Source of the DNA: an uncultured Bacillales bacterium
Lineage (GTDB): Bacteria; Bacillota_I; Bacilli_A; RF39; UBA660
Assembly: GCA_949948745.1 (NCBI GenBank)
Contig: CATLHA010000004.1
Location: 4,261-68,260 of the forward strand
Reading direction: 5' to 3'
DNA: 64,000 nt
The notes below the pieces were generated by a model. It ran no database searches, was not told the origin of the DNA, and saw only the letters and a list, made by a program, of their open reading frames with translations. This document shows positions 16,529 to 33,367 of the stretch, piece after piece. Positions within the stretch are counted from its first letter, which is position 1; the number at the start of each line of letters is the position of its first letter. A program made the position numbers and the translations under genes.

Positions 16529-19483
16529 ATGTATACACCACTTTATGTAAAGACGAATTATTCATTGCTTTCAAGTTTAATTAAAATTGATGACTTGATT
16601 GAATTTTGTCTCCAACATAATATAAAATCCATTGCTATCACGGATTCTAATCTTTTTGGTATGATGGAATTTTATAAAAAATGTAATAAAAATAGTATTC
16701 ACCCAGTGATCGGATTAGAAATAACTTTAGAAAATAGTATAATCTTATTATATGCGAAAAATTATAAGGGATATCAAAGTTTAATTAAACTATCTACCAT
16801 TCAAAGTGAAAGACAAGTAACAATAGACGATATTAAGAACAACAGCCAAGAAATATTATGTATTATTCCATTTGAATATAAAGAGTTATTAAATACAATT
16901 AGAAATATTGTTTCAGAAATATATTTGGGATATAAAAATAAAGAAGAAGAACGTATTGTAAGATTAGATACCAAAAATGTAGTGTTCTTAAGAGAAGTAC
17001 AATATATTAAGAAAGAAGAGGAGCCATATCTAAAATATCTATTTATGATTAGAGATGGAAAAACAATCGCAGATTTTATAGAATACGATACAGAGAATAA
17101 AGAATTAGAGCTTGATAATATTTATAACTATTCTAGTAATGAAGGTCTCTTTGAAACAACAGAATTTTCTAGAAAATGTAATTTTGAATTTCCGAAATCA
17201 GAATTATTATTACCAATTTTTGATACAAAGGATAAAGGAACCCCTATTGAATATTTAACATCTCTTACACAAACAGGATTACTAAAAAGATTAAATAATC
17301 AAGTTCCAAAAGAATATCAAACAAGACTAGCTTATGAACTTGAGATTATTGAAAAAATGGGATTTTCAAATTATTTTTTAGTGGTATATGATTTTATAAA
17401 ATACGCAAAGAAAAACAAAATATTAGTTGGCCCTGGAAGAGGGAGTGGAGCAGGATCTTTGGTGTGTTATTCGATTGGAATTACAGACTTAGATCCAATT
17501 AAATATGATCTTTTATTTGAAAGATTTTTAAATCCAGAAAGAATCAGTATGCCAGATATAGATACCGACTTTCCAGATATTTATAGGGATCAAGTAATTG
17601 AATATGTAACAAATAAGTATGGGAGTAAGAAAGTATCGGGAATTGTCACTTTTGGGACACTTGCAGCAAAACAAGCAATTAGAGATGTTTCTAGAGTACT
17701 CAATGTACCAGGATATCAAGTGGATCAAGTGTCAAAAAGAATACCATCTTTTACAAAGAAAAAACTTATGGACTTTTATCAAGAAGATCCAGAATTCAAA
17801 AGATTAATTACATCTGATGAAAAATTAAAGCAGATGTTAAAAATTGCAAATATCATCGAGGGATTTCCAAGACATACATCTTCTCATGCAGCAGGAATTG
17901 TCATGTGTCAAAAAGATTTAGACGAAGTAGTTCCATTAACCAAAAATGATGGAATTTATTTAACAGGATTTACGATGGAATACTTAGAAGAATTAGGCCT
18001 ATTAAAAATGGACTTTTTGGGACTTAGAACTTTGACAACCATCATGAGAATTATAAATGACATCAAAGAAGGAGAAGGAAAAGAAATTGATTTTAATACT
18101 ATTCCACTAGATGATCAAAATGTGCTAGAGATATTTAGAAAAGCAGATACAACAGGAATCTTTCAATTTGAAAGTGATGGTATGAGAAGTTTTTTAAGAA
18201 GATTAGAACCCTCTACTTTTGAAGATATCTTTGCGGCAATTGCATTATTTAGACCGGGACCTGCAATTAACATAGATTCTTATATTCGAAGAAAAAATAA
18301 TCAGGAAGAAATCACTTACTTAGATAAATCCTTAGAACCAATTTTAAAAAGTACCAAAGGAATTATTATTTATCAGGAACAAATTATGCAAATTGCATCA
18401 AGTTTTGCAGGATATACCTTAGGAGAAGCAGATATTTTAAGGCGCGCAATGAGTAAGAAAAAAATGGATGTCTTAAAAAGTGAAGAAGAAAGATTTATGG
18501 AACGTAGCATCAAACGGGGACACAGCGAAGAAACTTCTAAGAAAATATTTGATTTAATTTTGAATTTTGCCAATTATGGTTTTAATCGTTCCCATTCTGT
18601 TGCTTATTCTTTAATTGCATATAAAATGGCTTACTTAAAATATTATTATCCAAAATATTTTTATAGTAATTTACTAACTTCTGTGATAGGAAGTGAAACA
18701 AAAACAAAAGAATATATCAACGAAATAAAATCTCTTGGAATAGAAATATTAAAGCCATGTATTAATCGTAGTAATAAAACTTATATTGTAGAAAAAGATG
18801 GAATTCGTTACCCACTTTCTGCAATTAAAAATATTGGAGTAGTCAGCGTAGAAGCAATTCTAAAAAATAGACAGGAACCATATCAGGATATTTTCGATTT
18901 TCTATCAAGAACAGCAAGTCGTGGAATTACAAGAAAAGTAATAGAATCTTTAATTGATGCAGGATGCTTAGACTTATTTGGATATAATCATCAGACATTA
19001 CAACATAATCTAGATAGTATTATGACTTATGCAGATTTAACCAAAGACTTAGACCCTGAATTCGTTTTAAAACCAGAAATAGAAGTTATAGAGGAATATC
19101 CAAAAGATTATTTAATTCAAAAAGAAAAAGAATTATTTGGTTTATATTTAAGTAATCATCCAGTAACAAACTATAAAGCGAAATATAAAGATATTATTTC
19201 TCTAAATCAAATTAAAGATTTCTTTAATAAAAGAATAAATACAATTATTATGGTAGATAAAATAAAGACAATCAAGACAAGGAGCGGTACAGATATGATG
19301 TTTATTACAGGTAGTGATGAATATCAATCTTTAGACTTTACTGTATTTCCAAGAGTATATAACCGTTATATGGATTTAAATATCCAAAATGGTATGATTT
19401 TAAAAATTACAGGAATCGTAGAAAAAAGATATAATGATTTTCAAGTAGTAGTTGATGTCATAGAATCGCTAAATAAAAATTAG
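16529..19483 (+). CDS. dnaE: DNA polymerase III alpha subunit (DnaE)
   Basis: PGRGSGAGS, PDIDTD, KMDFLGL, YGFNRSHS, C-terminal OB fold. Confidence 0.97.
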   Translation: MYTPLYVKTNYSLLSSLIKIDDLIEFCLQHNIKSIAITDSNLFGMMEFYKKCNKNSIHPVIGLEITLENSIILLYAKNYKGYQSLIKLSTIQSERQVTIDDIKNNSQEILCIIPFEYKELLNTIRNIVSEIYLGYKNKEEERIVRLDTKNVVFLREVQYIKKEEEPYLKYLFMIRDGKTIADFIEYDTENKELELDNIYNYSSNEGLFETTEFSRKCNFEFPKSELLLPIFDTKDKGTPIEYLTSLTQTGLLKRLNNQVPKEYQTRLAYELEIIEKMGFSNYFLVVYDFIKYAKKNKILVGPGRGSGAGSLVCYSIGITDLDPIKYDLLFERFLNPERISMPDIDTDFPDIYRDQVIEYVTNKYGSKKVSGIVTFGTLAAKQAIRDVSRVLNVPGYQVDQVSKRIPSFTKKKLMDFYQEDPEFKRLITSDEKLKQMLKIANIIEGFPRHTSSHAAGIVMCQKDLDEVVPLTKNDGIYLTGFTMEYLEELGLLKMDFLGLRTLTTIMRIINDIKEGEGKEIDFNTIPLDDQNVLEIFRKADTTGIFQFESDGMRSFLRRLEPSTFEDIFAAIALFRPGPAINIDSYIRRKNNQEEITYLDKSLEPILKSTKGIIIYQEQIMQIASSFAGYTLGEADILRRAMSKKKMDVLKSEEERFMERSIKRGHSEETSKKIFDLILNFANYGFNRSHSVAYSLIAYKMAYLKYYYPKYFYSNLLTSVIGSETKTKEYINEIKSLGIEILKPCINRSNKTYIVEKDGIRYPLSAIKNIGVVSVEAILKNRQEPYQDIFDFLSRTASRGITRKVIESLIDAGCLDLFGYNHQTLQHNLDSIMTYADLTKDLDPEFVLKPEIEVIEEYPKDYLIQKEKELFGLYLSNHPVTNYKAKYKDIISLNQIKDFFNKRINTIIMVDKIKTIKTRSGTDMMFITGSDEYQSLDFTVFPRVYNRYMDLNIQNGMILKITGIVEKRYNDFQVVVDVIESLNKN

Positions 19484-19567
19484 TGGGGAAAATTAACAAG
19501 GATTATTTTCAAAAAAATATAAGTATGGTATATTTATATTATATAGGTAAATCGAGGGAGGGAACAT

Positions 19568-20410
19568 ATGAAATTAGAATTTCAAGTCAACGATTATTTA
19601 TTAACTTGGACACTATTATATGGAGCATCTATCTCTCAAAGAATTCATACATTTAAGCAAAAACTTTGGACGACATATAAAAAACAATATAATAGAAGCA
19701 CTAATGATAAAGATGAAATGCTAATGGATATAAAAAACTATCTGCCTAATGATGATATTTTATATAATTTAGTATTAGAGACAGAAATTTTCGAACAGTT
19801 AAAGGAAGAAACAGAAAAACATAGATTAGCGCTTATGAAAGTATGGGATCAAAATAAAAAAGAAGTTGTCAAAAATATTAATGATATTATAAGATTTCCA
19901 TTAAAAGCAAAATATGATATTGTTGTTCTTCATCCTAAGATGGATACTTATCTTTTATCAAATGAATGTAAATCAACAATTGGTTGGGGATTTAAAAATG
20001 ATTTAGAAGATGAATTAATGACCTTAACTAATATTGTTTATACAATTATAAAAACAGAAATGAGTGACTTTGAAAAAGAGTATAAAAAATATAAAGAAAT
20101 TATACAAGCTATTTTAGAATTAGCTATTCATAATGAGTTATATACAAGACTAAGTAAAAAATCAAACTACCTAGATGGGGACCCAACTTTAACATTCTTA
20201 AAAAGACAAATTTATCCATATTGGTTAATGTATCTTGGGTGTGAAAGGGAAGATATGACCCATTATATGATGCGTGATAAAGTAGCTTTTGATATTGAAA
20301 ACTATGTGGTAGAAACGCAACTAAAAAAAATAAACTTATATGAGTTTATAAAATTCTGTATTAAAAATCAGAAATATATTATTAGAATTAATAGCTTAGA
20401 AATAATATAA
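19568..20410 (+). CDS. Hypothetical protein between dnaE and polC
   Basis: 280-aa ORF, GAGGGAGG SD, TGGTATATT extended -10. Confidence 0.8.
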   Translation: MKLEFQVNDYLLTWTLLYGASISQRIHTFKQKLWTTYKKQYNRSTNDKDEMLMDIKNYLPNDDILYNLVLETEIFEQLKEETEKHRLALMKVWDQNKKEVVKNINDIIRFPLKAKYDIVVLHPKMDTYLLSNECKSTIGWGFKNDLEDELMTLTNIVYTIIKTEMSDFEKEYKKYKEIIQAILELAIHNELYTRLSKKSNYLDGDPTLTFLKRQIYPYWLMYLGCEREDMTHYMMRDKVAFDIENYVVETQLKKINLYEFIKFCIKNQKYIIRINSLEII

Positions 20411-20462
20411 CTAATAGATTTCAAATTTGAAATCTTTTTCATTCATGCAGGGGGAGTAGTAC

Positions 20463-23400
20463 ATGGAAAAAGAAAAAATACAAATCTTATTTGATCAAAT
20501 CGGTTTAACAGAAGAAGAGAGGGAAAGGTTTCAAGATTTATCTTTAGTAAAAGTAAAGGTAAATGAAAAAAATAGTAGTTGGACCTTTGTTTTAGAAAGT
20601 AATGATGTTTTAGAATTAGAAGAATATCAATTATTAGAAAAAAAGGCTACTACTGCATTTTCTAATATCAAGAAAGTAAGATTTGAAATTACTCCAAAAC
20701 ATAAAAACTTTTCACATCTACAAGAGTATTATGAATATGCATTAGAACAAGTGAAAAAAATACTAGTGTATGCACCAATCTTTAAAGATTGTCTTTTAGA
20801 AATGGATGGAAAATATGTAATAGAATCGACAAACCAAGAAGAAGAAAAACAAGTAAAGGAAATTTTACCAAAATTAAACTATCTTCTTGGACTTTTCGGA
20901 TTCGAAATAGAAGTAGGGACTTACCTTAATTTAGAAAAAGAACATCAATTTAGGGAAGAAATAAATAATGAAATAAAAGCATCATCTAGTAACATTAAAC
21001 CATTAGAAGTGAAAGAGGAAGTGAAACCTAGTAAAACTTATAATACATATCCTAAAAAAGAAGATGGAAAAACCCAATACCGTAGACAGCCAAAAGAAGA
21101 TAATCCAGATGTAATTCTTGGTAGAAGTATTAAAGATACTCCAATTCAAATGAAATCTATTATAGGGGAAGCAGATAATGTTACAGTAGAAGGATATGTC
21201 TTTGGAGTAGATTACTTCGAATCTAGTAAAACAGATTTTAAGATTATAACTCTAAAAATGACAGATTATAGTGATAGTATCTATTGTAAAGTATTCGCAC
21301 GAGGAGACGAAGACTATGGTCGTTTAAGTAAGGCACTAAAAGCAGGAAACTGGTTTATTATTCGTGGTTATACAAAAAATGATACATTTTCAAAAGAACT
21401 TGTATTAAATGCAAGAGATATTATGAAAGTCGAAAAGGTAGGAAATATAATCGAAGATAAAGCTGAGGTAAAAAGAGTAGAACTTCATGCGCATACCATG
21501 ATGAGTCAAATGGATGGAATTACAAAACTAGACCTTGGGAAACATACTTGCGAACTTGTAGAAAGAACCATCAAAATGGGATATAAGGGGGTCGCAATTA
21601 CCGACCATAATGGATGTCAGGCTTTTCCTATTTCCTTTGGTATCATTAAAGGACATAATAAATCTATCCGAAAAAAAATCAAAGAAAAAATAGAAAATTT
21701 AGAACAAGAAATAGAAAAAGCAGAAGAGGAAGAAAAGAAAAAATCATTATTAGCAGAATTAGAACAAGCAAAAGAAGAACAAAAAAATCCTCCAATATTT
21801 AAAGGACTTTATGGAACAGAACTTACACTAGTTGATGATACAGTAAATATTGTAGTACGTCCAACTGATGATGATTTACTTCATAATACCTATGTTGTAT
21901 TCGATACAGAAACGACAGGATTTAATGCTGGTGGAGCCGATCAAATGATTGAAATTGGAGCGGTTAAAATTAAGGATGGAGAAATTATTTCCCGTTTCGA
22001 TGAATTAATCGATCCAAAAAGACATATTCCAGATAAAATTACAGAATTAACATGTATTACGGATGATATGGTTAGAGGTAGAAAGTCAGAAGAAGAAGTT
22101 ACTAAGATGTTCTTAGAATGGGCAGGAGATTTACCGATGGTTGCCCATAATGCAAAATTCGATATATCCTTTGTTGAAATGGCTATGAAAAAATACAACT
22201 TAGGAGAGTTTAAAAATACAGTAATCGACACCTTGGAACTATCTAGAACATTAGATCAAGGATATGCAAGACACTCTCTATCTGCATTAGTAAAAAGATA
22301 TGATGTTCCATGGGAAGAAGATGCCCACCATAGAGCAGATTATGATGCAGAGGGTACAGCATATGTCTTTAGTAAAATGTTAAAGAAATTGGAAATGCAA
22401 AAATATGAAAAAATTAGTGATTTAGATAGATTAATTTCTAAAGACGAAATTCATAAATTTGGTAGAACATTTCATTTTAATGCGATTGCTTTAAATAAAA
22501 CAGGACTGAAAAATTTATTTACAATCATATCTTTAGCTAATACAGTTTACTTGTATAAAACACCAAGAATCTTAAGAAGTAAACTAAATGAACTTAGAGA
22601 AGGGTTGCTAATTGGTAGTGGTTGTTATGAATCTGAGGTATTTAATGAAGCAAGAAGTAAAGATGGAGAAGAATTAACAAATATTATTAACTTTTATGAC
22701 TATGTAGAAGTTCAACCACCAGAAGTATATGATCATTTAATTCAGCTTGGTGATTTTAAGGATGAAGAGGAGCTTAAAATACATATCAAAAAAGTGATTC
22801 ATGCTGTTAGAGATTCAGGAAAAATCATTGTTGCAACAGGAGATGTACATCATTTTGAAAGAGATGATAAAGTTTATAGAGAAATCATTGTAAATCAAAA
22901 GGTTCCTGGTGGCGGAAGACATCCACTAGCGAAAAAAGATATTACGGAAATTCCATCTCAACATTTTAGAACAACAGAAGAAATGCTTCAAGATTTTTCA
23001 TTTTTAGAAGATGATTTAGCTTATGAGATTGTTGTTACCAATACAAATAAAGTATTAGATATGGTAGAAGAAATTGAAGTAATACCAGATACTGGAGGGA
23101 CTCCATTTTCACCACGTGTAAAAAGTGATGATGAACAAAGCTATTTAGATTGTCCAAGGGTAGTAACAGATTTAGTATATACAAAGGCAAATGATTGGTA
23201 TGGAGATCCTCTCCCATATTCAATTGAAGAAAGATTAGGAACCGAGCTTTATGGGGATGTCGTTTTAACATCAATTAAATATGACTTATCTTCGTTAGAA
23301 GGAAAAGAATTAGAAAAAGAATCATTTAAACGTCTACATGAAGTAATCGTTAGTGGAAGAGATTCTGTTTTTGAACAGGTTAGAAATTATTTGAAAAAGA

Positions 23401-25268
23401 CAAGTGAAGAAGAATTAACAGAAGATGCCTTAGAGAAAAAATTAAAAAGCTCTCTAGGAGGAGTTATTGGTGCCGGATTTGATCCAATTTATCTAATCGC
23501 TCAAAGATTAGTAAAACATTCGAATGATGAAGGATATTTAGTAGGGTCTCGTGGTTCTGTGGGTTCTAGTTTCGTTGCGACTATGATGGGAATTACAGAA
23601 GTAAATCCGCTTTCTGCTCATTATCGTTGTAGTAATTGTAAATTAAGTATTTTTGAAGATGAAGAAGGAAATCCATTAGGAGCTACCTATTCTTCAGGAT
23701 TTGATTTACCTGATAAAATGTGCCCACATTGCAATATTCCATTAATTAAAGATGGACAAGATATGCCATTTGCGACATTCTTAGGATTTAATGCAGACAA
23801 AGTACCAGATATCGATTTAAACTTTTCAGATTTAAATCAAGCAAGTACGCATGCCTATACAAAAGTATTGTTTGGTAGTGATAATGTTTACCGTGCTGGA
23901 ACCATCGGTACCGTTGCCGATAAGACAGCATTTGGATATGTAAAAGGATATTTTGAGGATAGGGGAATTGAAAATGTTCGTACAGCAGAAGTAGAACGTC
24001 TAGCGATTGGATGTACTGGAGTAAAAAGGACAACAGGACAGCATCCAGGAGGAATTGTAGTTATACCAGATTATATGGATTGTTTTGACTTTACACCATT
24101 CCAATTTCCTGCAGAGGATCCAACTTCTGCTTGGAGAACGACACACTTTGATTACCACTCTATTGAAGAATGTGTATTAAAACTAGATATTTTAGGACAT
24201 TCTGATCCAACCCAATTAAGACTAATTCAACTACAATCAGGAACGGATATTATGAAAGTTCCTTTAGACGATAAAGAAACAATGAGTATATTTACTTCTA
24301 CTGAAGCACTAGGAGTTACAAAAGAACAAATTATGTGTAATACAGGTACCTTGGGAATTCCAGAATTTGGAACTCCATTTACTATTCAATTAGTAGAAGA
24401 TACCAAACCAACATCCTTTGCCGAACTTGTAAAAATATCTGGACTTTCTCATGGAACCGATGTTTGGCTTGGAAATGCAAAAGATTTGTGTACACCAGAT
24501 GAAAATGGAAAAATTCAAGTACCATTTAAAGAAACCATTGGCTGCCGTGATGATATTATGGTTTATTTAATGTATCGTGGAGTAAAACCGATTAAGGCAT
24601 TTAAAATCATGGAATTTGTTCGTAAAGGAAAAGCCAGCAAGGATCCAGAAACTTGGGCAGGACATAAACAAACAATGATTGATGCCAATATTCCAACTTG
24701 GTTTATTGATTCATGTCAAAAGATTAAGTACATGTTCCCAAAAGCTCATGCCGCAGCCTATGTAATAAGTGCTTTTAGAATCGCCTGGTATAAGGTTCAT
24801 ATGCCAGTATATTTCTATGCTTCCTGGTATTCATCAAAAGCAACAGACGTAGATGTAGAAGCAATGATAGGTGGATATACCCCAATTAAAAACAGAATTA
24901 TAGATATTCAAAATAAAGGATATGAAGCAACGAATAAGGAAAACGGACAACTTGAAAGTTTAAAAATTGCTTTAGAAGCAACGGCCAGAGGAATGAAGTT
25001 CTTAAATGTAGATTTATATAAGAGTGATGCTACCGTTTGGAAAGCAGTTAGTGATACAGAGATTTATCCACCATTTAACTCGATTGATGGACTTGGAGAT
25101 ACAGTAGCGCAAAATATTGTTACAGAACGTGAACAAAAAGAATTTTTAAGTATTGAGGATTTACAAAAACGTGCAAAAATATCCCAAACATTAATTGATA
25201 AAATGAAGATTATGGGAATTCTAAAAGATTTACCAGAATCGAGTCAAATGACTTTGTTTGAAATATAA
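20463..25268 (+). CDS. polC: PolC-type DNA polymerase III
   Basis: OB fold, PHP (HAHTMMSQMDG), DEDDh exonuclease (FDTETTG, HNAKFD, HRADYD), GSRGSVGSS, PDIDLN, KLDILGH. Confidence 0.98.
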   Translation: MEKEKIQILFDQIGLTEEERERFQDLSLVKVKVNEKNSSWTFVLESNDVLELEEYQLLEKKATTAFSNIKKVRFEITPKHKNFSHLQEYYEYALEQVKKILVYAPIFKDCLLEMDGKYVIESTNQEEEKQVKEILPKLNYLLGLFGFEIEVGTYLNLEKEHQFREEINNEIKASSSNIKPLEVKEEVKPSKTYNTYPKKEDGKTQYRRQPKEDNPDVILGRSIKDTPIQMKSIIGEADNVTVEGYVFGVDYFESSKTDFKIITLKMTDYSDSIYCKVFARGDEDYGRLSKALKAGNWFIIRGYTKNDTFSKELVLNARDIMKVEKVGNIIEDKAEVKRVELHAHTMMSQMDGITKLDLGKHTCELVERTIKMGYKGVAITDHNGCQAFPISFGIIKGHNKSIRKKIKEKIENLEQEIEKAEEEEKKKSLLAELEQAKEEQKNPPIFKGLYGTELTLVDDTVNIVVRPTDDDLLHNTYVVFDTETTGFNAGGADQMIEIGAVKIKDGEIISRFDELIDPKRHIPDKITELTCITDDMVRGRKSEEEVTKMFLEWAGDLPMVAHNAKFDISFVEMAMKKYNLGEFKNTVIDTLELSRTLDQGYARHSLSALVKRYDVPWEEDAHHRADYDAEGTAYVFSKMLKKLEMQKYEKISDLDRLISKDEIHKFGRTFHFNAIALNKTGLKNLFTIISLANTVYLYKTPRILRSKLNELREGLLIGSGCYESEVFNEARSKDGEELTNIINFYDYVEVQPPEVYDHLIQLGDFKDEEELKIHIKKVIHAVRDSGKIIVATGDVHHFERDDKVYREIIVNQKVPGGGRHPLAKKDITEIPSQHFRTTEEMLQDFSFLEDDLAYEIVVTNTNKVLDMVEEIEVIPDTGGTPFSPRVKSDDEQSYLDCPRVVTDLVYTKANDWYGDPLPYSIEERLGTELYGDVVLTSIKYDLSSLEGKELEKESFKRLHEVIVSGRDSVFEQVRNYLKKTSEEELTEDALEKKLKSSLGGVIGAGFDPIYLIAQRLVKHSNDEGYLVGSRGSVGSSFVATMMGITEVNPLSAHYRCSNCKLSIFEDEEGNPLGATYSSGFDLPDKMCPHCNIPLIKDGQDMPFATFLGFNADKVPDIDLNFSDLNQASTHAYTKVLFGSDNVYRAGTIGTVADKTAFGYVKGYFEDRGIENVRTAEVERLAIGCTGVKRTTGQHPGGIVVIPDYMDCFDFTPFQFPAEDPTSAWRTTHFDYHSIEECVLKLDILGHSDPTQLRLIQLQSGTDIMKVPLDDKETMSIFTSTEALGVTKEQIMCNTGTLGIPEFGTPFTIQLVEDTKPTSFAELVKISGLSHGTDVWLGNAKDLCTPDENGKIQVPFKETIGCRDDIMVYLMYRGVKPIKAFKIMEFVRKGKASKDPETWAGHKQTMIDANIPTWFIDSCQKIKYMFPKAHAAAYVISAFRIAWYKVHMPVYFYASWYSSKATDVDVEAMIGGYTPIKNRIIDIQNKGYEATNKENGQLESLKIALEATARGMKFLNVDLYKSDATVWKAVSDTEIYPPFNSIDGLGDTVAQNIVTEREQKEFLSIEDLQKRAKISQTLIDKMKIMGILKDLPESSQMTLFEI

Positions 25269-25379
25269 ATTGATAAGAAGAAAATTAAAATAGAAAAGAT
25301 TTTCTTCTTTTTCTATGGAGAAATATGTATAAAATACTAGAAAAAGGTGTTATAATAAGGCAAGAAATGTGGTGATATT

Positions 25380-26465
25380 ATGACAATAGAACAATATATA
25401 GAACGTCATGGAAATGATACAATGAGTGAATTACCATTTACAGAAATAGATAGTCTTCTACTAACATCACTTGTGTATCTAAATTTAGATAAAATTATGC
25501 CAAAGGATAAAAATGAGATGATGTCTCTATCAAAAATTTCCTCTTTGTTTTTTAAAAAAAATGATGAACAAACGATAAAAAAAATGAGACCATCGTTTAT
25601 TCCACACGTAATCTCCATTCTTCGTTTAATGGCTCAGAAAAAAAGATATAAAAACATTTTATTCTATAACTATATTAACGAGGTAACAGACATAACTCAG
25701 TTTTGTGCGATAACTGCAAAGTTAGAAGATCATACAAACTACATTGCATTTTCAGGAACAGACGATTCTGTTATTGGATGGAAAGAAGATTTTCAAATGT
25801 CCTATGTCTTTCCAGTTCCAGCACAAGAAAAAGCTTTAAATTACTTAAAAAATACAATTTCTATTTTTGGGCCTAAATATAGAGTAGGTGGGCATTCAAA
25901 AGGTGGAAATCTTGCGATGACCAGTTATATGCTTAATAATTTTTTAATTCAGCATAAGATAATAGAAGTATATAATTTTGATGGCCCAGGATTTAGAAAA
26001 AGGGAATTTGAATCTAAAAAATTTAAAGTGATGGAAAGAAAACTAAAGATGTATATTCCAGAAAAAAGTTTAATAGGAAGATTATTTAGAAGCTCAGAGA
26101 ACTATGAGGTAATCAAAAGCAGTTCTAATGTTTTCTTTCAGCATGATGGAACAAGATGGATTGTAGATGATTTAAAGTTTAAAAGAGGAGAATTTTCTAA
26201 ACAAAGTAAAAAGTTAGAAAAAAGGGTATTTGATTGGATTAATAGTTACCAGGATGAAGATAGAAAAAAAATAGTAGATATCATATTTTCTGTTCTAGAA
26301 AAAGGCGGAATTACAGAACTTAGTCAATTACGTGTTTCTAAGTTACAAAAAGTCTATATTTTAATTAAGGAAAATAAAGATATGGATAAGGAATCTAGAA
26401 AATTAATTCTAGATGCGATTAAAAAATTAATATTACAAAAGGAAAATAAAAAAACAAGTAATTAA
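25380..26465 (+). CDS. DUF2974/Mbeg1-like alpha/beta hydrolase (lipase class 3-like)
   Basis: AFSGTDDS.IGWKEDF, GHSKGG nucleophile elbow, FDGPGF, QHD. Confidence 0.85.
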   Translation: MTIEQYIERHGNDTMSELPFTEIDSLLLTSLVYLNLDKIMPKDKNEMMSLSKISSLFFKKNDEQTIKKMRPSFIPHVISILRLMAQKKRYKNILFYNYINEVTDITQFCAITAKLEDHTNYIAFSGTDDSVIGWKEDFQMSYVFPVPAQEKALNYLKNTISIFGPKYRVGGHSKGGNLAMTSYMLNNFLIQHKIIEVYNFDGPGFRKREFESKKFKVMERKLKMYIPEKSLIGRLFRSSENYEVIKSSSNVFFQHDGTRWIVDDLKFKRGEFSKQSKKLEKRVFDWINSYQDEDRKKIVDIIFSVLEKGGITELSQLRVSKLQKVYILIKENKDMDKESRKLILDAIKKLILQKENKKTSN

Positions 26466-26558
26466 CAATCTGAAAAAAGGTGAAATTGAAAAAAAGATAT
26501 GTTGTCACTAAATAAAACATGGTATACTATAAATGAAGAATAGATAGGAGGAATATCA

Positions 26559-29372
26559 ATGAACGGTGAAGAGCTAGCTAAAAAATCTGGTATAGAAGAT
26601 AAAAATCGTTTCTTTTTTTCTGATGATTATTATGATGAAATACCAGAGGTTCCAGAAAAAAATAACTTTGATCCATTTCAACCTCCTAAGAAAAATGAGA
26701 ATACTACATCAAATTTAAGTAGTAGTACCAATAACTTTTTTAATAATGATTTATTGTCAAGTTCTACTACTAGAAATAACAATATAGGAATTCAGCAAGC
26801 AAGTAGCTTAGATCAAGTAATTGGAAATAATTATCAAACTGAATCAGAAGGTGCCTCTGAGAACGTTTTTAACTTTTTTGCACATCGCACAAATACTGAA
26901 ATAAATGAGCAGGTGCCTAAAGAGATTCAGGAAGAATCACAAGAAAAAATTGTAGAAAAAGAAGAACCAAAACCAAGAGAAAGTTTTTTAGGTAATCTTA
27001 CAGGAAAAAGAAAAAAACAAAAGGAATTAGAAGTAGTTCATGTGGGAACAGATATTGTTTCTGATATAGATAACAATTTATATTCTGAAAATGCAAGCCA
27101 GTTAGGAGAAGTAAAGCCAGAAGAAAATCCTTTTAATTTAAATACAGTAGAAAATAAAGTTTCATTCCAACAAGAAAATCAATTTTCGTTTGCACCAAAT
27201 CAAGAACAGAATAACCAATTGAATCAGAATATGAGTTCTATAGGGAATGAATCTTCAGAACTAACAGGACGGTTTTCATTTCTTTCAGAGCCTAGTCAGG
27301 AACAAGGTAGTTCATTTGATTTACCCAAACAAGATATAGATTCAGCAGAAAGTGCATTACCAAAAACACAAACAGGAGGATTCTCATTTACTAATGAACC
27401 AATAAAGGAAGAAGCAAAAGAAGTTCAAAATACTTGGAATTCACCATCTATAAATAATGATTATTATAAACCAAATGAAAGTGAAAGCAATAATTTCTTT
27501 TTTGGAGCACCTTCAGGTCCACTTTCTGATATCGAAAGGGCTAAAAGTGATATTTCAGCTACAGAAAATAATTATTTTGGAACAAAAGAAGAAAATATCA
27601 CAAATGATATTGATTTTATTGCTAAATTAAAAAATCAGGAAACATCAGATAATAAAAATAAAGAAAGAGATATGTTTGCTCCTCGATTTGGAACAGATGC
27701 TAAAGAAGAGGAAAGGAAAGATTTCTTATTAGAAAGAAAAATTGAGACTCCAATAGAAGATATAGAAGTCCCAGAAAGAAAATTACAATATGGGAATTAT
27801 TATAATGGAGAACTTCCGAAAGAAGAAAACAAATTCATTATGAATGATGATAGTAGTGTTCCAGTAAATGATAAACCTAGAGAGTTGCCAAAGACAATAA
27901 TTCCAGATTTCATGTCTGGTTCTATTGGAACGCAAAACTTTAATATAGAAACTGGTATTAATCATGAACTAGAAGCAGAACTAATGAAACAAAGAGCAGA
28001 GGAAGAAGCTAGAATCAGGGCATTAAATCCAGAATTACAAGCGTATGATTTAACCGCCAAAAAGTCAAAAAAGCAAATGGTTTACAAAGCCGGTGGAAAA
28101 AGTTATATTCGTGATGTTGTAGAAAAACCAAAAACTAGACCAAAAAAGAAAATAGAAGAGCCAAAGATAGAGGTAGACAAGGAAACGGTAATTGAGCCTC
28201 CTCCAGCTAAAGAACCAAAATCATTAGAAGAATTAATTGAAAGTATTGTAGGAGTTCCAGGATTAGAAAATCTTGAAGTAAAATTAAATCCATATGAAAA
28301 TCCAGGAGTAAGATTTGGTTTTAAAGAAAAGCAAGATAAAAAAGTAGTAGTGGAAGACCAACCTACGAATGTATATGATGAGAAAAAAGATAACTTTGAT
28401 TATGATCAGAATTTTGAAAATGTAGAAATTATTAAATCTACAATATTAGATGAATTAGCCGAAAAGGCAAAAAATGAAAACAAAATAAGTATCTTAGCGC
28501 GTTATGGAGAAGATTTCTGTGCTAGAGATTATATTACCAATCCAGCAATTGGTCGTGCAGAAGAAATAAAACAATTAATTTTAATTTTATTAACACCTGA
28601 GAAGTCAGGAATACTAATTGGTAAACCAGGTATTGGTAAAACATCTATTGTAGAAGGACTTGCTTATCAATTACAAAGAAATAATGTTCCAGATGCTTTA
28701 AAAGGATATTGTATTGTTAGTGTTAAAACACCATCCCTACTTGGTACATTACCAACTGGAGAAACTAGATTACAAACTTTAGTAGATGAACTAAAAGATT
28801 TAGATAAGATTATTCTATTTATTGATGAAATTCATATGCTAATAGGAGCAACAAACGATTCTGCGATGGACTTTGCGAATATGTTTAAGGAAAGTCTTGG
28901 ACGTGGTACAATTAAAGTTATCGGTGCTACAACAACAGAAGAATATGAAAGATATATTTTACGTGATAAAGCATTTGTACGTCGTTTCCAAAAAGTAGAA
29001 GTAGAAGAGCCAAGTAGAGAGCATACAATTAAAATTTTGATGGGAACATTACCTAAAATTGAAAAATCAACAGGTGCTAAATTAAAATATACAGAATTTA
29101 TGCAAACAGAAATTATGGCATTTATCGTAGATATCACTACAGAATATAAACGAATTTATGGAATTGGTTCTAGGTATCCAGATATTTGTTTAACATTACT
29201 TTCTCAAGCATTTTCACAAGCTGTTTTTGCAAATAGAAAAGAAGTAAATATTAATGACGTTCGTAAAGCAATAGAAAATTCTAAAAATATTTATCCTGAT
29301 GTGATTAAAAAAGAATTATTAAATTTTGATAGAAAATTTAAAGACTTAATTCGTGAAGAGTCAGTTGAATAG
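26559..29372 (+). CDS. Clp/Hsp100-related AAA+ ATPase with a single NBD and a long disordered N-terminus
   Basis: PAIGRAEEI, Walker A GKPGIGKT, Walker B ILFIDEIH, GATT, DKAFVRRF Arg finger in the last ~300 aa; AGGAGG SD. Confidence 0.85.
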   Translation: MNGEELAKKSGIEDKNRFFFSDDYYDEIPEVPEKNNFDPFQPPKKNENTTSNLSSSTNNFFNNDLLSSSTTRNNNIGIQQASSLDQVIGNNYQTESEGASENVFNFFAHRTNTEINEQVPKEIQEESQEKIVEKEEPKPRESFLGNLTGKRKKQKELEVVHVGTDIVSDIDNNLYSENASQLGEVKPEENPFNLNTVENKVSFQQENQFSFAPNQEQNNQLNQNMSSIGNESSELTGRFSFLSEPSQEQGSSFDLPKQDIDSAESALPKTQTGGFSFTNEPIKEEAKEVQNTWNSPSINNDYYKPNESESNNFFFGAPSGPLSDIERAKSDISATENNYFGTKEENITNDIDFIAKLKNQETSDNKNKERDMFAPRFGTDAKEEERKDFLLERKIETPIEDIEVPERKLQYGNYYNGELPKEENKFIMNDDSSVPVNDKPRELPKTIIPDFMSGSIGTQNFNIETGINHELEAELMKQRAEEEARIRALNPELQAYDLTAKKSKKQMVYKAGGKSYIRDVVEKPKTRPKKKIEEPKIEVDKETVIEPPPAKEPKSLEELIESIVGVPGLENLEVKLNPYENPGVRFGFKEKQDKKVVVEDQPTNVYDEKKDNFDYDQNFENVEIIKSTILDELAEKAKNENKISILARYGEDFCARDYITNPAIGRAEEIKQLILILLTPEKSGILIGKPGIGKTSIVEGLAYQLQRNNVPDALKGYCIVSVKTPSLLGTLPTGETRLQTLVDELKDLDKIILFIDEIHMLIGATNDSAMDFANMFKESLGRGTIKVIGATTTEEYERYILRDKAFVRRFQKVEVEEPSREHTIKILMGTLPKIEKSTGAKLKYTEFMQTEIMAFIVDITTEYKRIYGIGSRYPDICLTLLSQAFSQAVFANRKEVNINDVRKAIENSKNIYPDVIKKELLNFDRKFKDLIREESVE

Positions 29373-29405
29373 AAAAATGTTAAGAGAGAATTCTTAACAT
29401 TTTTT
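29373..29405 (+). terminator. Intrinsic terminator after the AAA+ gene
   Basis: aaaaatgttaaga...tcttaacattttt. Confidence 0.75.
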
Positions 29406-29440
29406 GATTATGATTGACTCTATAGTCAAATATAATTAAA

Positions 29441-29464
29441 AAATCCTAGCAAAAGCTAGGATTT
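29441..29464 (-). terminator. Terminator downstream of tRNA-His
   Basis: aaatcctagc-aaaa-gctaggattt hairpin with A-run on + strand. Confidence 0.7.
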
Positions 29465-29474
29465 GTTTTATAAG

Positions 29475-29551
29475 TGGGGCGAAATATGGGGATCGAACCC
29501 ATGCATACCGGAGCCACAATCCGGCGTGTTAACCACTTCACCAATTCCGCC
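29475..29551 (-). tRNA. tRNA-His (GUG), CCA encoded, with G-1
   Basis: Reverse complement GGCGGAATTGGTGAAGTGGTTAACACGCCGGATTGTGGCTCCGGTATGCATGGGTTCGATCCCCATATTTCGCCCCA folds as a cloverleaf with anticodon GTG. Confidence 0.97.
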
Positions 29552-29769: not shown

Positions 29770-30213
29770 ATGAATAATAACTTTAGATATGACTCTTATA
29801 GAAATCCAAACATGCCTATGCTAAATCAGAATCAAATTTTACCGACTCCAAGTGTACCATCCAATAACAATTTAGCAGAACCATATCAAGGATTTTTACA
29901 AGGAAACTTATTTAATAACCTTTATGTAGGTTATAAAAATTATCGTCCTGCTAGAATTGTTCCAAATAATGAACAGGCAGAACTTCTACTAAATGTAGAT
30001 CAATTATCATTTGCAGCTCATGAATTAAACTTATATTTGGATGTACATCCAAGTGACTCCAATATGATAGCATTATTTAACAAATATCAAGCAATGGTTA
30101 ACGATGCCGTAAATGAATATGAAAGAAGATATGGCCCTTTATCTATTACATTCCCATCAGATAGAAACCAATTTAGCTGGGAAGCATATTCATGGCCATG
30201 GGAGGTGGATTAA
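29770..30213 (+). CDS. cotJB: Spore coat protein CotJB with N-terminal CotJA-like segment
   Basis: FAAHELNLYLDVHP, YERRYGPL, WPWE end; N-terminal EPYQGFLQGNLFNNLY. Confidence 0.88.
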   Translation: MNNNFRYDSYRNPNMPMLNQNQILPTPSVPSNNNLAEPYQGFLQGNLFNNLYVGYKNYRPARIVPNNEQAELLLNVDQLSFAAHELNLYLDVHPSDSNMIALFNKYQAMVNDAVNEYERRYGPLSITFPSDRNQFSWEAYSWPWEVD

Positions 30214-30214
30214 G

Positions 30215-30790
30215 ATGTGGAAATATGAAAAAAGATTACAATATCCAGTATCTATTAGAAAAAAAGATTTAGCTTTTGCTAAACAATTAATTACACAATA
30301 TGGTGGTTTTGCTGGTGAATTAGCTGCTGCATTAAGATATTTAAATCAAAGATATACAATGCCAGATAATAGAGGAAAAGCCCTACTTACAGATATTGGA
30401 ACAGAGGAACTTGCCCATGTGGAAATTTTATCAACAATGTTATACCAATTGATGAAAGATGCAACACCAGAAGAAATGAAAGCAGCAGGACTTGCTAGTC
30501 ATTATGCAGAACATAGAAATGCGATTTATCCACTAGATGCAAATGGAGTACCTTTCACAGTAACTTATTTTGCTACTACGGGTGATCCACTAGCAGATTT
30601 AAGTGAAGATATGGCAGCAGAAGAAAAAGCAAGAGCAGTGTATGAAAGTTTAATCGATTTAACAGATAATCCAGATATTATCGGACCACTTCTTTGGTTA
30701 AGACAAAGAGAAATTGTACACTTCAATCGATTTAAAGAGCTTTATGATGATTACAAAAAAAATATGAATGCAATTCAGCCTAGATCATAA
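30215..30790 (+). CDS. cotJC: Spore coat manganese catalase-like protein CotJC
   Basis: Start MWKYEKRLQYPV 1 nt after the cotJB stop; QYGG.GEL, DIGTEELAH, EDMAAE, REIVHF. Confidence 0.93.
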   Translation: MWKYEKRLQYPVSIRKKDLAFAKQLITQYGGFAGELAAALRYLNQRYTMPDNRGKALLTDIGTEELAHVEILSTMLYQLMKDATPEEMKAAGLASHYAEHRNAIYPLDANGVPFTVTYFATTGDPLADLSEDMAAEEKARAVYESLIDLTDNPDIIGPLLWLRQREIVHFNRFKELYDDYKKNMNAIQPRS

Positions 30791-30802: not shown

Positions 30803-32467
30803 CTAAGAGATATGATATTTTTCTCTTAAGATTTTTTTTACTTTCTTATTATTTTCTTCAGGAAAAGGAAGAGGCATAGGGCCATAATAATTAACTTCCA
30901 TTTCATCATATATACTTTGAAGCATATCTAATTGGAAATAGTATTCCTGAACAAAAGGAGATTGATCATCCTTTTCCCTAAGTAATTGTTTTAAATTATT
31001 TCTTTTAATTAAATCGGCTATGACATTTACAATTTCACTAATTTCTTCTAATAAATTTGCAGGAATATTTTCGAGTAAGGAATCTTTGTCATGATCCATC
31101 AAATATTTTTTAATAACACGATTAAATTTATAATGGAGAGGTAAGATTAAATTTTTGACTAATAAGTCAGAATTATAACTATAAACATCTTCATTTACAA
31201 TTCTTTCATCCTCTAATAAATAAGTAAATTCATGTAGGATATCACGAATTGCGATTCCATGTAAATCAGTAATAGTTTCATTAAAATTCTCATGAATAAA
31301 TAATTTATCATCGTATGGATTTTTCATTTCATTATAAACTTGAAAACCTAAAACCATCCCATATAAAACATCTAAAGCTGCACCATTTGTGTGAACCAAT
31401 TCATGAAATAAAGCATAATCTAATTTTCCACAAATACTAGAATCAAGATAAAAAAGAATGATATTTGTATAACCATACATATTTTCCTTGAAATAAGTTA
31501 ATACAGATTGAGAACATAATTTCTTCTTTCTCATTGCATCCAGTAGGTTATTCACACTACAATATTTTAAATCTCTGATATTAGAAATACGATTTATATT
31601 AATTATATTCTCAGTTACAAATTCACCTTCTAATTCTTTAAGGACCTCTTCTTTAATCTTTACAAATCTTTTTACTAAAGAAACATCTGGAACAATTCTT
31701 TGAATAGATTCATCTTCTAATAATTTTTTATAAGCATCTCTTGCATTACCACTAGGAATCTGAACACCAAAAGCTTCAAAATATTTTAATCTAGAGTACA
31801 AATTTTCTAAAGAAAGAGAATCAACGTCAGTATCGGTATCAAAAAATTCAATAGGATAAAAATAATTTCCAGTTTCTGGTAATAATCGATTTACTAAATG
31901 AATTTCTCTATGAAAAGTAATAATATCATATGGAAGAAATCCAAGTATTCTATGTAATATTAAATCTCTTTTCTTTGAACAAAAACTATGATAAGAATCC
32001 AATTGTTGTTTTGCAAAATCTTTTAAGTATGAGTAACGGCTTAAGGTCTTTTCATATTGCTCAAGAACTTCATAATACAAAGATACTTCCTTTTCTGTTG
32101 CTCCTTCGTTTGATAAAATACTATTTTCTTCGTCCTCAAAGTAGGATTCTCCAAAATAATAGGAACAGATTTCTTGAGTTTTTTCATCCATTCTAGAACT
32201 ATTATTCCAATCTTTATTAAAAGAAATTTCTAATTTTGATAAATATTCTAAAGCAAAGTAATTTTGCAATTTTCTTTTCAAATTTTTGTAATAACCATCT
32301 AATGAGGTAGGATGAATATAGTTAAGAAAATTAAAATCTTTTAATCGAAAAGATACAATATCACGATATTCTTCTCCATAAAAGCAAACAAACAATTCAA
32401 TAAATAAATCTATATAATCGTTAATCTTAATATCTGTCAAATCAATTTGAAAGTCTGTTAAACCCAT
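30803..32467 (-). CDS. Hypothetical protein with gluzincin-type metallopeptidase motif
   Basis: FHELVH plus downstream FNETITD; start moved to MGLTDF after AGGTGGTG SD. Confidence 0.65.
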   Translation of the reverse strand: MGLTDFQIDLTDIKINDYIDLFIELFVCFYGEEYRDIVSFRLKDFNFLNYIHPTSLDGYYKNLKRKLQNYFALEYLSKLEISFNKDWNNSSRMDEKTQEICSYYFGESYFEDEENSILSNEGATEKEVSLYYEVLEQYEKTLSRYSYLKDFAKQQLDSYHSFCSKKRDLILHRILGFLPYDIITFHREIHLVNRLLPETGNYFYPIEFFDTDTDVDSLSLENLYSRLKYFEAFGVQIPSGNARDAYKKLLEDESIQRIVPDVSLVKRFVKIKEEVLKELEGEFVTENIININRISNIRDLKYCSVNNLLDAMRKKKLCSQSVLTYFKENMYGYTNIILFYLDSSICGKLDYALFHELVHTNGAALDVLYGMVLGFQVYNEMKNPYDDKLFIHENFNETITDLHGIAIRDILHEFTYLLEDERIVNEDVYSYNSDLLVKNLILPLHYKFNRVIKKYLMDHDKDSLLENIPANLLEEISEIVNVIADLIKRNNLKQLLREKDDQSPFVQEYYFQLDMLQSIYDEMEVNYYGPMPLPFPEENNKKVKKILREKYHIS

Positions 32468-32569
32468 AATTTCACCACCTAAAAAGTAAATATTATTATA
32501 TGTTATAAAAGATAAAATGTATATAAATAATGGTATATTTATGTTAAAATATTTGAAGAAGGTGATGAT

Positions 32570-33367
32570 ATGGAGAAAATTATTATGCTTGGAGTAGGAC
32601 ATGGAGCGACACTTGATTTATATAATACTTGTTTTGTAATCCAAAATGAAGGTGGAAATTTTTTAATAGATACAGGAGGAAGTATAGAAATCGTAAAAAG
32701 ATTAAATCAAATGAATATTGAACTTTCTTCTATTAAAGATATTTTTGTTTCTCATTCTCATACAGATCATTTATTAGGATTAATATGGATGTTTAAGAGA
32801 ATGGCAACTCTAAAACTAGACTCTAATCATAAAGTGAATTTATATTGTAATGATTTAACATATGATGCGATAATAAAGGTAGCAGAACAAGTTTTATCAG
32901 AAGGACTAATTAAAAAGGTATTCAGTAACTTTAATATTCAAATATTAACAGATGGAAATAAAAAAATAATTCATAATATAGAATATACTTTCTTTGATAT
33001 TAGGGCAAAAGGACCAAAACAATATGGTTTTGAATGTACCTTAAATAATAAAAAATTAGTATTTTTAGGGGACGAACCACTAAATAAAGAATTATTTGAT
33101 AGAGTAAAAAATAGCGATTATGTAATGCACGAAGCTTTTTGTCTAGATAGTGAACAAGATATTTTTCATCCATATGAAAAAAATCATTCAACCGCAAAAA
33201 GTGCCTGCGAAGTGATGAATGAATTAAATGTAAAAAATATTATTTTATATCATACAGAGGAAAGTCATAAAGAAAAAAGAAAAGAATTATATATAGAAGA
33301 AGGAAAAAAATATTTTAATGGAAATGTTTTAGTTCCAAACGATTTAGAAATCCTAGAATTAAAATAA
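32570..33367 (+). CDS. MBL-fold metallohydrolase (RNase Z/BN-like)
   Basis: LIDTG, SHSHTDH, FLGD, HEA, NHST, LYH. Confidence 0.88.
   Translation: MEKIIMLGVGHGATLDLYNTCFVIQNEGGNFLIDTGGSIEIVKRLNQMNIELSSIKDIFVSHSHTDHLLGLIWMFKRMATLKLDSNHKVNLYCNDLTYDAIIKVAEQVLSEGLIKKVFSNFNIQILTDGNKKIIHNIEYTFFDIRAKGPKQYGFECTLNNKKLVFLGDEPLNKELFDRVKNSDYVMHEAFCLDSEQDIFHPYEKNHSTAKSACEVMNELNVKNIILYHTEESHKEKRKELYIEEGKKYFNGNVLVPNDLEILELK

Follow-up and report, generated by a model that had tools for sequence, protein, structure and literature searches.

A 64,000-nt stretch of contig CATLHA010000004.1 (assembly GCA_949948745.1) from an uncultured Bacillales bacterium, hereafter the window, contains a gene for a 937-aa protein whose C-terminal third is a single ATPase module of the Clp/Hsp100 D1 type and whose first 620 residues form a largely disordered extension (Table 1). 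The borders and strand of its open reading frame (ORF) are exactly those assigned earlier in a reading of the sequence alone. The module belongs to a Clp-D1-derived protein family with invariant ATPase residues, in which none of the members examined has the aromatic residue of the pore loop (the Tyr-less D1 family). With about even confidence, we read the gene as a genus-specific, N-extended member of this family whose product would act as a hub: an ATP-dependent, non-threading ring that presents tethered docking peptides.

The gene and its Clp D1 module

The source genome comprises 1.8 Mb in 96 contigs (~28% G+C), and the window corresponds to positions 4261-68260 of contig C4. The sequence-only reading had named a truncated or mis-assembled Clp protein with two nucleotide-binding domains (NBDs) as one outcome that would speak against it. 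Three sequencing runs, each from a different study, had single contigs that covered positions 26400-29500 with seven substitutions and zero gaps, and a 99%-identical 937-aa protein was found as the representative of 12 member sequences from 5 contigs. Mis-assembly and truncation were ruled out by these independent contigs and by the near-identical protein, and the ORF encodes a genuine single-D1 protein.

Table 1. Features of the gene and of the encoded protein (nucleotide positions are those of the window; aa, amino acid residues)
Feature	Position	Strand	Basis or remark
ORF, 937 aa + stop	26559..29372	+	ATG start
Sigma-70-like promoter match, TTGTCA-17 nt-TACTAT	26502..26530	+	consensus scan, 9/12 matches; weak
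Alternative TG-extended -10	26520-26528	+	within the promoter-match region
Shine-Dalgarno AGGAGG	26546..26551	+	7 nt ahead of the ATG; read from sequence
Terminator-like hairpin, 9-bp stem, 6-nt loop, T5	29377..29405	+	5 nt past the stop; read from sequence
Conserved N-terminal acidic-aromatic motif NRFFFSDDYYDE, aa 16-27	26604..26639	+	orthologue alignment
Hypervariable disordered region, aa 28-465	26640..27953	+	pLDDT < 50; length and sequence vary among orthologues
Semi-conserved linker module, aa 466-620	27954..28418	+	AF2 secondary structure; orthologue alignment
AAA+ module of the Clp/Hsp100 D1 type, aa 625-937 (both D1 sub-domains and two C-terminal helices)	28431..29369	+	Pfam, NCBIfam, PDB alignment, AF2, Foldseek
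Walker A GKPGIGKT, aa 688-695	28620..28643	+	alignment; K694/T695 in 67/67 family members
Pore-1 loop position GTLPTGETR, aa 729-737	28743..28769	+	alignment; aromatic in 0/67 family members
Walker B ILFIDE, aa 752-757	28812..28829	+	alignment; D756/E757 in 67/67
Arg-finger pair R808 R809 (AFVRRFQ)	28980..28985	+	aligned to ClpB ALERRFQ; 67/67

The gene had also been credited with its own promoter and terminator. Both elements can be seen, at consensus level only. The promoter scan around the ORF returned 19 sites of equal kind against 23.7 expected from shuffled sequences, and the promoter is therefore taken as a consensus-level match. The hairpin behind the stop codon was not listed by the terminator scanner, which demands three G-C pairs; too few are present.

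A Pfam scan of the protein returned the generic AAA family alone, at residues 685-809, and none of Clp_N, AAA_2, AAA_lid_9 and ClpB_D2-small. The NCBIfam models of ClpB, ClpA, and ClpV matched solely through their D1 part (residues 626-907, E ~1e-50), scoring ~160-174 bits against cut-offs of 885-1232; in the comparison with class-I Clp/Hsp100 proteins at large, the NCBIfam scores were 124-174 bits and the cut-offs 885-1900. The best matches among solved structures were the D1 domains of ClpB, ClpC, Hsp104, and ClpA (E 1e-34 to 1e-41), headed by residues 155-371 of ClpB1 (PDB 9ip0, E 1.4e-41). Since residues 185-432 of ClpA align to residues 660-907, the large and the small D1 sub-domain are both present. 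An AlphaFold2 (AF2) model based on a 22-sequence alignment was folded over residues 625-937 (predicted local distance difference test, pLDDT, of 63-90 by block), and Foldseek searches with this model returned the D1 domains of ClpC1, ClpC, ClpA, and ClpB (E ~1e-17).

The conserved residues of an active AAA+ ATPase, namely the Lys of Walker A, the Asp-Glu of Walker B, sensor-1, and the Arg finger, are all present in the window protein, as they are in 67/67 family members; the alignment to solved structures places T791 and T792 of an IGATT sequence in the module. The chain has a single Walker A and a single Walker B motif, where a class-I Clp protein has two modules. A Clp N-domain and an M-domain are both lacking, and the chain stops ~30 residues beyond the small sub-domain of D1. 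The alignments and the Pfam scan thus agree with the earlier description of an NBD1-like module with intact ATPase motifs that lacks the N-domain, the M-domain, and NBD2. The pore loop reads LLGTLPTGETRL, compared with L[VL]AGAKYRGEFEERL in ClpB; it is shorter by two residues and the Tyr is absent.

Two ordinary two-ring Clp paralogues are encoded on contig C5 of the same genome, which also encodes ClpP (303.8 bits, slightly below the cut-off of 308.6). A PHROGs scan matched only a generic 'ATP-dependent protease' family, with no sign of a phage role, and a PADLOC scan gave only weak generic AAA matches (IetA, TRIP13), with no sign of a defence role.

Distribution and phylogeny of the Tyr-less D1 family

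Orthologues were found in 15/18 genomes of the genus. The three genomes without one are 92%, 89%, and 76% complete, and in one of these a contig edge bears an N-terminal fragment of the gene. Within the genus, the ATPase modules are 72-86% identical, and the N-terminal parts range from 250 to 732 aa and are poorly alignable. The close relatives come from metagenome-assembled genomes of uncultured gut Bacilli or 'Tenericutes', among them Candidatus Scybalousia intestinigallinarum, whose protein is 91% identical in the ATPase module.

An exhaustive HMMER search with residues 600-937 returned 18,611 proteins at E ≤ 1e-3, and the best 150 of these were grouped. Three groups were seen among these 150: (a) N-extended forms like the window protein; (b) forms with a 69-73% identical module at residues 9-304, followed by 160-680 aa; and (c) proteins of 420-700 aa with 37-47% identity and a folded N-domain, most of which have a Tyr or Phe in the pore loop. 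Short forms of 329-441 aa were also among the matches listed. The third group (clade C) is a separate large group to which P0067, P0076, P0082, and many others belong as well, often with a K[IV]IxFP-like tail.

In the bacterial family of the host, the D1 module was detected at E ≤ 1e-60 in 115/121 genomes and in 93/97 of those of high quality. Each genome had one match, save one genome with two, and most of the open frames encode 300-350 aa. In a sample of 200 genomes of the class, the module was present in 20/22 genomes of the host's family and in 0/177 genomes of 27 other families. Beyond the host's family but within its order, one genome has a 318-aa stand-alone form with 53% identity. The combination of a single NBD and a disordered region, whose conservation had been proposed as a check, is not conserved across the protein family: the extension is lineage-specific, and most members of the protein family are bare modules of ~300-350 aa. 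Because most members do without it, the extension cannot carry the core function of the family.

For a comparison of traits, 67 family members were aligned with 13 D1 modules of the outgroup. K694, T695, D756, E757, T791, T792, R808, and R809 do not vary among the 80 aligned sequences. R872, which lies in the sequence SRYPD, is present in 67/67 family members and variable in the outgroup. An aromatic residue in the pore loop was found in 0/67 family members compared to 12/13 outgroup D1 modules; the loss of the Tyr, noted earlier for the window protein from its sequence, is accordingly a trait of the whole family. The window protein shares all that marks the family, namely a single D1, a pore loop free of aromatic residues, R872, and its placement in the tree.

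In a quick maximum-likelihood tree the family formed one clade (67 rows, SH-aLRT 100). The N-extended proteins (25 rows, SH-aLRT 100) and the C-extended proteins (clade B; 18 rows, 95) were sister clades (96), and the pair was nested among the stand-alone forms.

The N-terminal extension and its terminal motif

Nearly all of residues 1-467 had a pLDDT below 50 in the AF2 model, in line with the disordered N-terminus that had been proposed earlier. The first 620 residues contain 83 E, 65 N, 58 K, 49 S, 39 P, 36 D, and 35 F, with 119 acidic compared to 77 basic residues. No transmembrane-like segment was found; the maximum 19-residue hydropathy is 1.2 and lies inside the AAA core. The disordered region of the window protein shows no notable tandem repeats. 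In the disordered region of one orthologue (L003:2088-2247), an 81-bp unit is duplicated in tandem (two copies, 93% matches), which illustrates how such a tether can grow.

The linker between the hypervariable region and the module consists of a TG[IV]NxELExEL helix (residues 469-497, pLDDT ~72), a VYKAGGKSY hairpin (504-520), and an ELIESI helix (556-564), followed by NPGVxFG and DNFDYDQNF. Y509 and A511 are invariant in the orthologue alignment, and G466 and L471 nearly so. No family match was obtained for the linker, and a protein-atlas search with residues 440-640 gave no usable match. The conserved islands of the extension among the orthologues are the N-terminal motif, QASSxDQ..NVFNFF, TG[IV]NxELExEL, VY[KR]A, ELIESI, NPGVxFG, and DNFDYDQNF.

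The sequence-only reading described the extension as a pattern of Phe stickers and named ten aromatic clusters, all of which were found in the translation. The clustering is real in this protein: 19 Phe have another Phe at most two residues away, compared to 7.1 ± 3.1 in shuffled sequences, and 4/5000 shuffles reach 19. An enrichment was not found, as Phe accounts for 35/620 residues (5.6%) compared to 4.59% in the proteome given by the ORFs of the genome (binomial p = 0.12). In the N-terminal regions of 15 orthologues the clustering was weaker (2 to 533 of 1000 shuffles reached the observed value), and much of it was supplied by two conserved islands. Of the clusters named, just two, the N-terminal motif and the NVFNFF island, are widespread in the orthologues; [DN][FY]FFG recurs in the closest relatives alone, and most of the ten clusters are not conserved.

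These values bear on a condensate scaffold of the stickers-and-spacers type, in which the clustered Phe would drive phase separation and the ring would add valency and ATP control. The long predicted disorder and the clustering of Phe in the window protein are consistent with such a scaffold, and a hexamer would multiply its valency. We nevertheless consider it unlikely, as the Phe content is not above that of the proteome, most of the clusters are missing in the orthologues, tether lengths differ by a factor of about three, and such a region is missing from most of the family.

Near the start of the extension lies the motif of residues 16-27, with the consensus NRF[IF]FSD[DS][FY]Y[DE] in the N-extended clade. 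F18 is invariant, and R17 and Y25 are nearly invariant in the orthologue alignment. Among the 27 N-extended proteins with a complete N-terminus, the strict form F[IF]F[STA][DN][DSAE][FY]Y was found within the first 45 residues in 23, and a looser form starting at residues 8-24 in 26. The C-extended sister clade carries an acidic-aromatic tail within its last 14 residues in 16/17 proteins (FFDDF[FY][DE]; e.g., ..FFDDFYDE or ..DDFFE). The motifs of the two clades are linked by their position and composition rather than by alignment statistics.

The pattern DD[FY][FY][DE] occurs five times in the ORFs of at least 50 aa of the source genome, and two of these occurrences are terminal: the window protein and an 840-aa protein on contig C17 (C17:26650-29169, L021). 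The latter, a type IV coupling protein, contains a Walker A motif and, in its N-terminal part, two hydrophobic segments, and it matches T4SS-DNA_transf, TraG-D_C, and TrwB_AAD_bind; its ~250-aa disordered, low-complexity tail contains a GM-rich repeat and ends in FFDDFFDD. Its neighbours on C17 (ORFs 18595-26630) resemble a Gram-positive type IV secretion cluster, behind which lies a pseudopilin-like gene that carries an N_methyl motif. In the small-genome family of the host, many genera have a homologue of the coupling protein with this tail.

A back-translated FFDDFF pattern gave 45 matches in 41/121 genomes of the host's family, compared to ~24 matches for the reversed pattern as a control. 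Thirty-eight matches were C-termini of coupling proteins (1-6 residues ahead of the stop), one was the tail of a clade-B D1 protein, four were N-termini of small ORFs resembling small heat-shock proteins (small HSPs), and two were spurious. Outside the family, a coupling-protein tail was found in 0/12 pattern loci examined, and 6/12 were N-terminal regions of ~140-aa small-HSP-like ORFs. The small-HSP-like loci are L081, L082, and L086-L089 in other families and L173-L175 and L177 in the family of the host.

A hydrophobic-x-hydrophobic element was found 4-20 residues upstream of the motif in 24/29 coupling-protein tails, compared to 0.15 of windows farther upstream as background, and in 14/14 clade-B tails analysed (background 0.31). 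This element appears to resemble the IxI anchoring motif of small HSPs. In the window protein the bipartite arrangement is compressed to F-x-F followed immediately by SDDYYD. The HSP20 of the same genome (C41, L184:1357-1821) has a related F/D-rich N-terminal stretch and the C-terminal end IEIK.

Because both proteins carry the same putative docking tail, the ATPase might be an accessory of type IV secretion that is recruited to the coupling protein, competes with it, or services it. The bipartite tail common to both proteins points in this direction, and so does the co-distribution: the FFDDFF pattern matched in 10/13 genomes with a D1 open frame of at least 400 aa and in 31/108 others, and at least 9 of these 10 matches are coupling-protein tails. 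However, the extended forms are monophyletic, and the co-distribution may reflect shared ancestry; as these forms are one clade, it does not count as independent evidence. Moreover, the D1 gene is present in 115/121 genomes and the exact coupling-protein tail in under half, and the two genes lie on separate contigs here (C4 and C17). An accessory role of this kind therefore seems improbable.

The matches in small HSPs bear on a chaperone role, in which the acidic-aromatic, Phe-rich region would bind non-native proteins in the manner of a small-HSP N-terminus and the D1 ring would remodel or hand over the clients, or would dock on small-HSP assemblies. The module descends from the D1 rings of disaggregases and unfoldases, and FFDDFF-type motifs stand in the N-termini of the ~140-aa alpha-crystallin-like ORFs both outside and inside the family, as does the related stretch in the HSP20 of this genome. 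These observations have to be set against the loss of the pore-loop aromatic residue in 67/67 members and the absence of the extension from most of them. A search of 37 upstream regions for heat-shock operators (CtsR- and CIRCE-like consensus sequences) gave only two weak matches. A chaperone role is possible, although the balance of these points is unfavourable to it.

More speculatively, the bipartite tail may be a lineage-wide docking code common to the Tyr-less D1 ATPase, the type IV coupling protein, and the N-termini of small HSPs, with the D1 ring or the alpha-crystallin domain of HSP20 as the receptor; we think this rather unlikely. If it were true, the tethered forms would be ATP-regulated assemblies with self- or hetero-multivalency, and a Clp-derived ring would be linked to a secretion ATPase or to small-HSP depots, which would be a new use of a D1 ring.

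Neighbourhood, proposed role and comparison with known systems

The ORF is preceded by polC and by an Mbeg1-like gene. The polC ORF (window 20463-25268) encodes 1601 aa including a Lys/Glu-rich stretch and appears long for PolC. The Mbeg1-like gene (PF11187; window 25380-26465) directly adjoins the ORF, as it does in two other loci (L003 and L007); other orthologues have different upstream neighbours. On the 3' side, a tRNA-His gene on the opposite strand is followed by cotJB and cotJC (Mn-catalase family) at window 29770-30790. The listed cotJ ORFs overlap, and the start of cotJC is therefore probably an internal Met. Farther downstream, a 599-aa ORF on the minus strand (window 30803-32602) had no Pfam match at E ≤ 0.01.

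The neighbouring cotJ genes hint at an ATPase of sporulation or of spore-coat morphogenesis. Homologues of cotJB and cotJC lie downstream in 19/46 loci examined, the window included, and Spo0A and SpoIVA are both encoded in the genome, with scores that exceed their cut-offs. The orientation of the cotJ genes varies, however (opposite strand in 12-13 loci, same strand in 6-7), and tRNA-His intervenes here. SpoIVA was found in 65/200 genomes of the class, across many families, and in 16/22 genomes of the host's family. Profiling against sporulation genes, proposed earlier as a check, showed no coupling: five high-quality genomes of the host's family have the D1 gene and no SpoIVA match, and in other families 48 genomes with a SpoIVA match are without the D1 gene. 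A sporulation role is thus very improbable.

The same check had been proposed for type VII secretion. An EssC ATPase of this system is encoded at C4:71272-75174 (1048.8 bits, above the curated cut-off), on the same contig, ~38 kb downstream of the ORF and ~3 kb past the right end of the window. The link was rejected, as EssC is present in 42/121 genomes of the family compared to 115/121 for the D1 gene, and in 6/13 genomes with extended forms. Of the earlier proposal of a scaffold or secretion-associated ATPase instead of an unfoldase, the departure from unfolding appears reasonable and the condensate is weakly supported; the hint of secretion leads to the type IV coupling protein and not to type VII secretion.

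Clp/Hsp100 motors are two-ring, tyrosine-driven threading machines. Given the single D1, the loss of the pore-loop aromatic residue, and the disordered N-terminus, a role other than classical threading is reasonable for the window protein. In the hub that we propose, the D1 module would form an ATP-dependent ring in the manner of D1 rings generally, but it would not work as a canonical tyrosine-driven unfoldase. The disordered region would serve as a flexible tether displaying one docking peptide per subunit and hence up to six per ring, and the protein may act as a multivalent, nucleotide-controlled hub or adaptor. The mirror-image layout of the sister clade and the tail of the coupling protein (hydrophobic-x-hydrophobic element, acidic spacer, FFDDFF) suggest a common binding mode or partner.

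Several points weigh against this proposal. We infer ring formation and ATPase activity from the conserved residues only. BLASTP between the disordered regions of the two clades gave a best E of 0.17, and an E of 1.1 from motif to motif; as neither is significant, the shared motif could be convergent or compositional. AF2 docked neither terminal motif on the ATPase (pLDDT 43-52 for residues 1-30 and ~37 for the clade-B tail). A mechanism that depends on a free C-terminal carboxylate cannot apply to the window protein, since its motif is N-terminal and preceded by just 15 residues. The tree comes from a quick search and has SH-aLRT values as its sole branch support, so its topology is provisional, and the genomes of the host's family are kin, so that counts across them are not independent. 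A complex prediction for the AAA module (residues 622-937) and the N-terminal 36 residues, both entered as alignments, gave a score of 0.02 (mark 0.32) and speaks neither for nor against binding.

The family retains the first ring and every ATPase residue and drops the gripping tyrosine, yet it is a near-universal core gene among uncultured gut Bacilli with small genomes, which are a large group. What is new in the extended forms is the lineage-specific tether, the conserved terminal motif, the mirror-image layout of the sister clade, and a type of tail shared with a secretion ATPase. The variant in the window may show how such a ring gains new connectivity, by a fast-evolving tether and a short, conserved, putative docking peptide, with the tether added N-terminally in one clade and C-terminally in its sister. 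Residues 16-27 and the tail of the coupling protein offer a handle for finding the partner, and hence the function, of the whole family. In the full-text literature, with subscription journals outside its coverage, no description was found of a D1-only, Tyr-less family derived from Clp, nor of an FFDDFF-type tail on Gram-positive coupling proteins. The ClpI paper concerns double-ringed enzymes (PMC10149685).

Of the known systems, the tail of F-like TraD is a parallel to the terminal motif. This acidic, aromatic-containing tail docks in a groove of TraM, with avidity arising from multiple weak contacts (PMC3159463). Both cases present a short acidic peptide with aromatic residues on the flexible linker of an ATPase, which is hexameric in TraD (PMC3159463). 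TraD differs in belonging to another ATPase family, the motif of the window protein is N-terminal, and its docking role is putative. In the sister clade (16/17) and in the coupling proteins, by contrast, a flexible tail bears the acidic-aromatic motif at its very C-terminal end, as in TraD. The N-terminal region of bacterial HSP20 is similar in having an F/D-rich motif within its first ~30 residues, which the same DNA pattern recovered in relatives; it differs in that no alpha-crystallin domain was found by Pfam in the window protein, and a functional equivalence is putative.

The single-D1 proteins of clade C (420-700 aa; e.g., P0053, P0061, and P0065) share the layout of one D1 without D2, at 37-47% identity. 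They differ in mostly keeping the pore-loop Tyr or Phe and in having a ~200-aa N-terminal region and a K[IV]IxFP-like C-tail, and they branch outside the Tyr-less family. The D1 of class-I Clp/Hsp100 proteins (ClpB, ClpC/ClpC1, ClpA, and Hsp104) is ~35-44% identical across both sub-domains; the fold agrees, and the Walker A and B motifs, sensor-1, and the Arg-finger pair are common to both. Unlike these proteins, the window protein lacks an N-domain, an M-domain, and a D2 ring, a ClpP-docking part was not detected in it, and its pore-1 loop is Tyr-less and shorter by two residues; it has instead the 620-aa N-terminal extension and two extra C-terminal helices. The bare stand-alone Tyr-less D1 modules have the same module, the same loss of the aromatic residue, and uncultured gut Bacilli as hosts. 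Unlike these, the window protein bears a tether of 620 aa in which a terminal motif is conserved, and it has a sister clade that is tethered at the opposite end.

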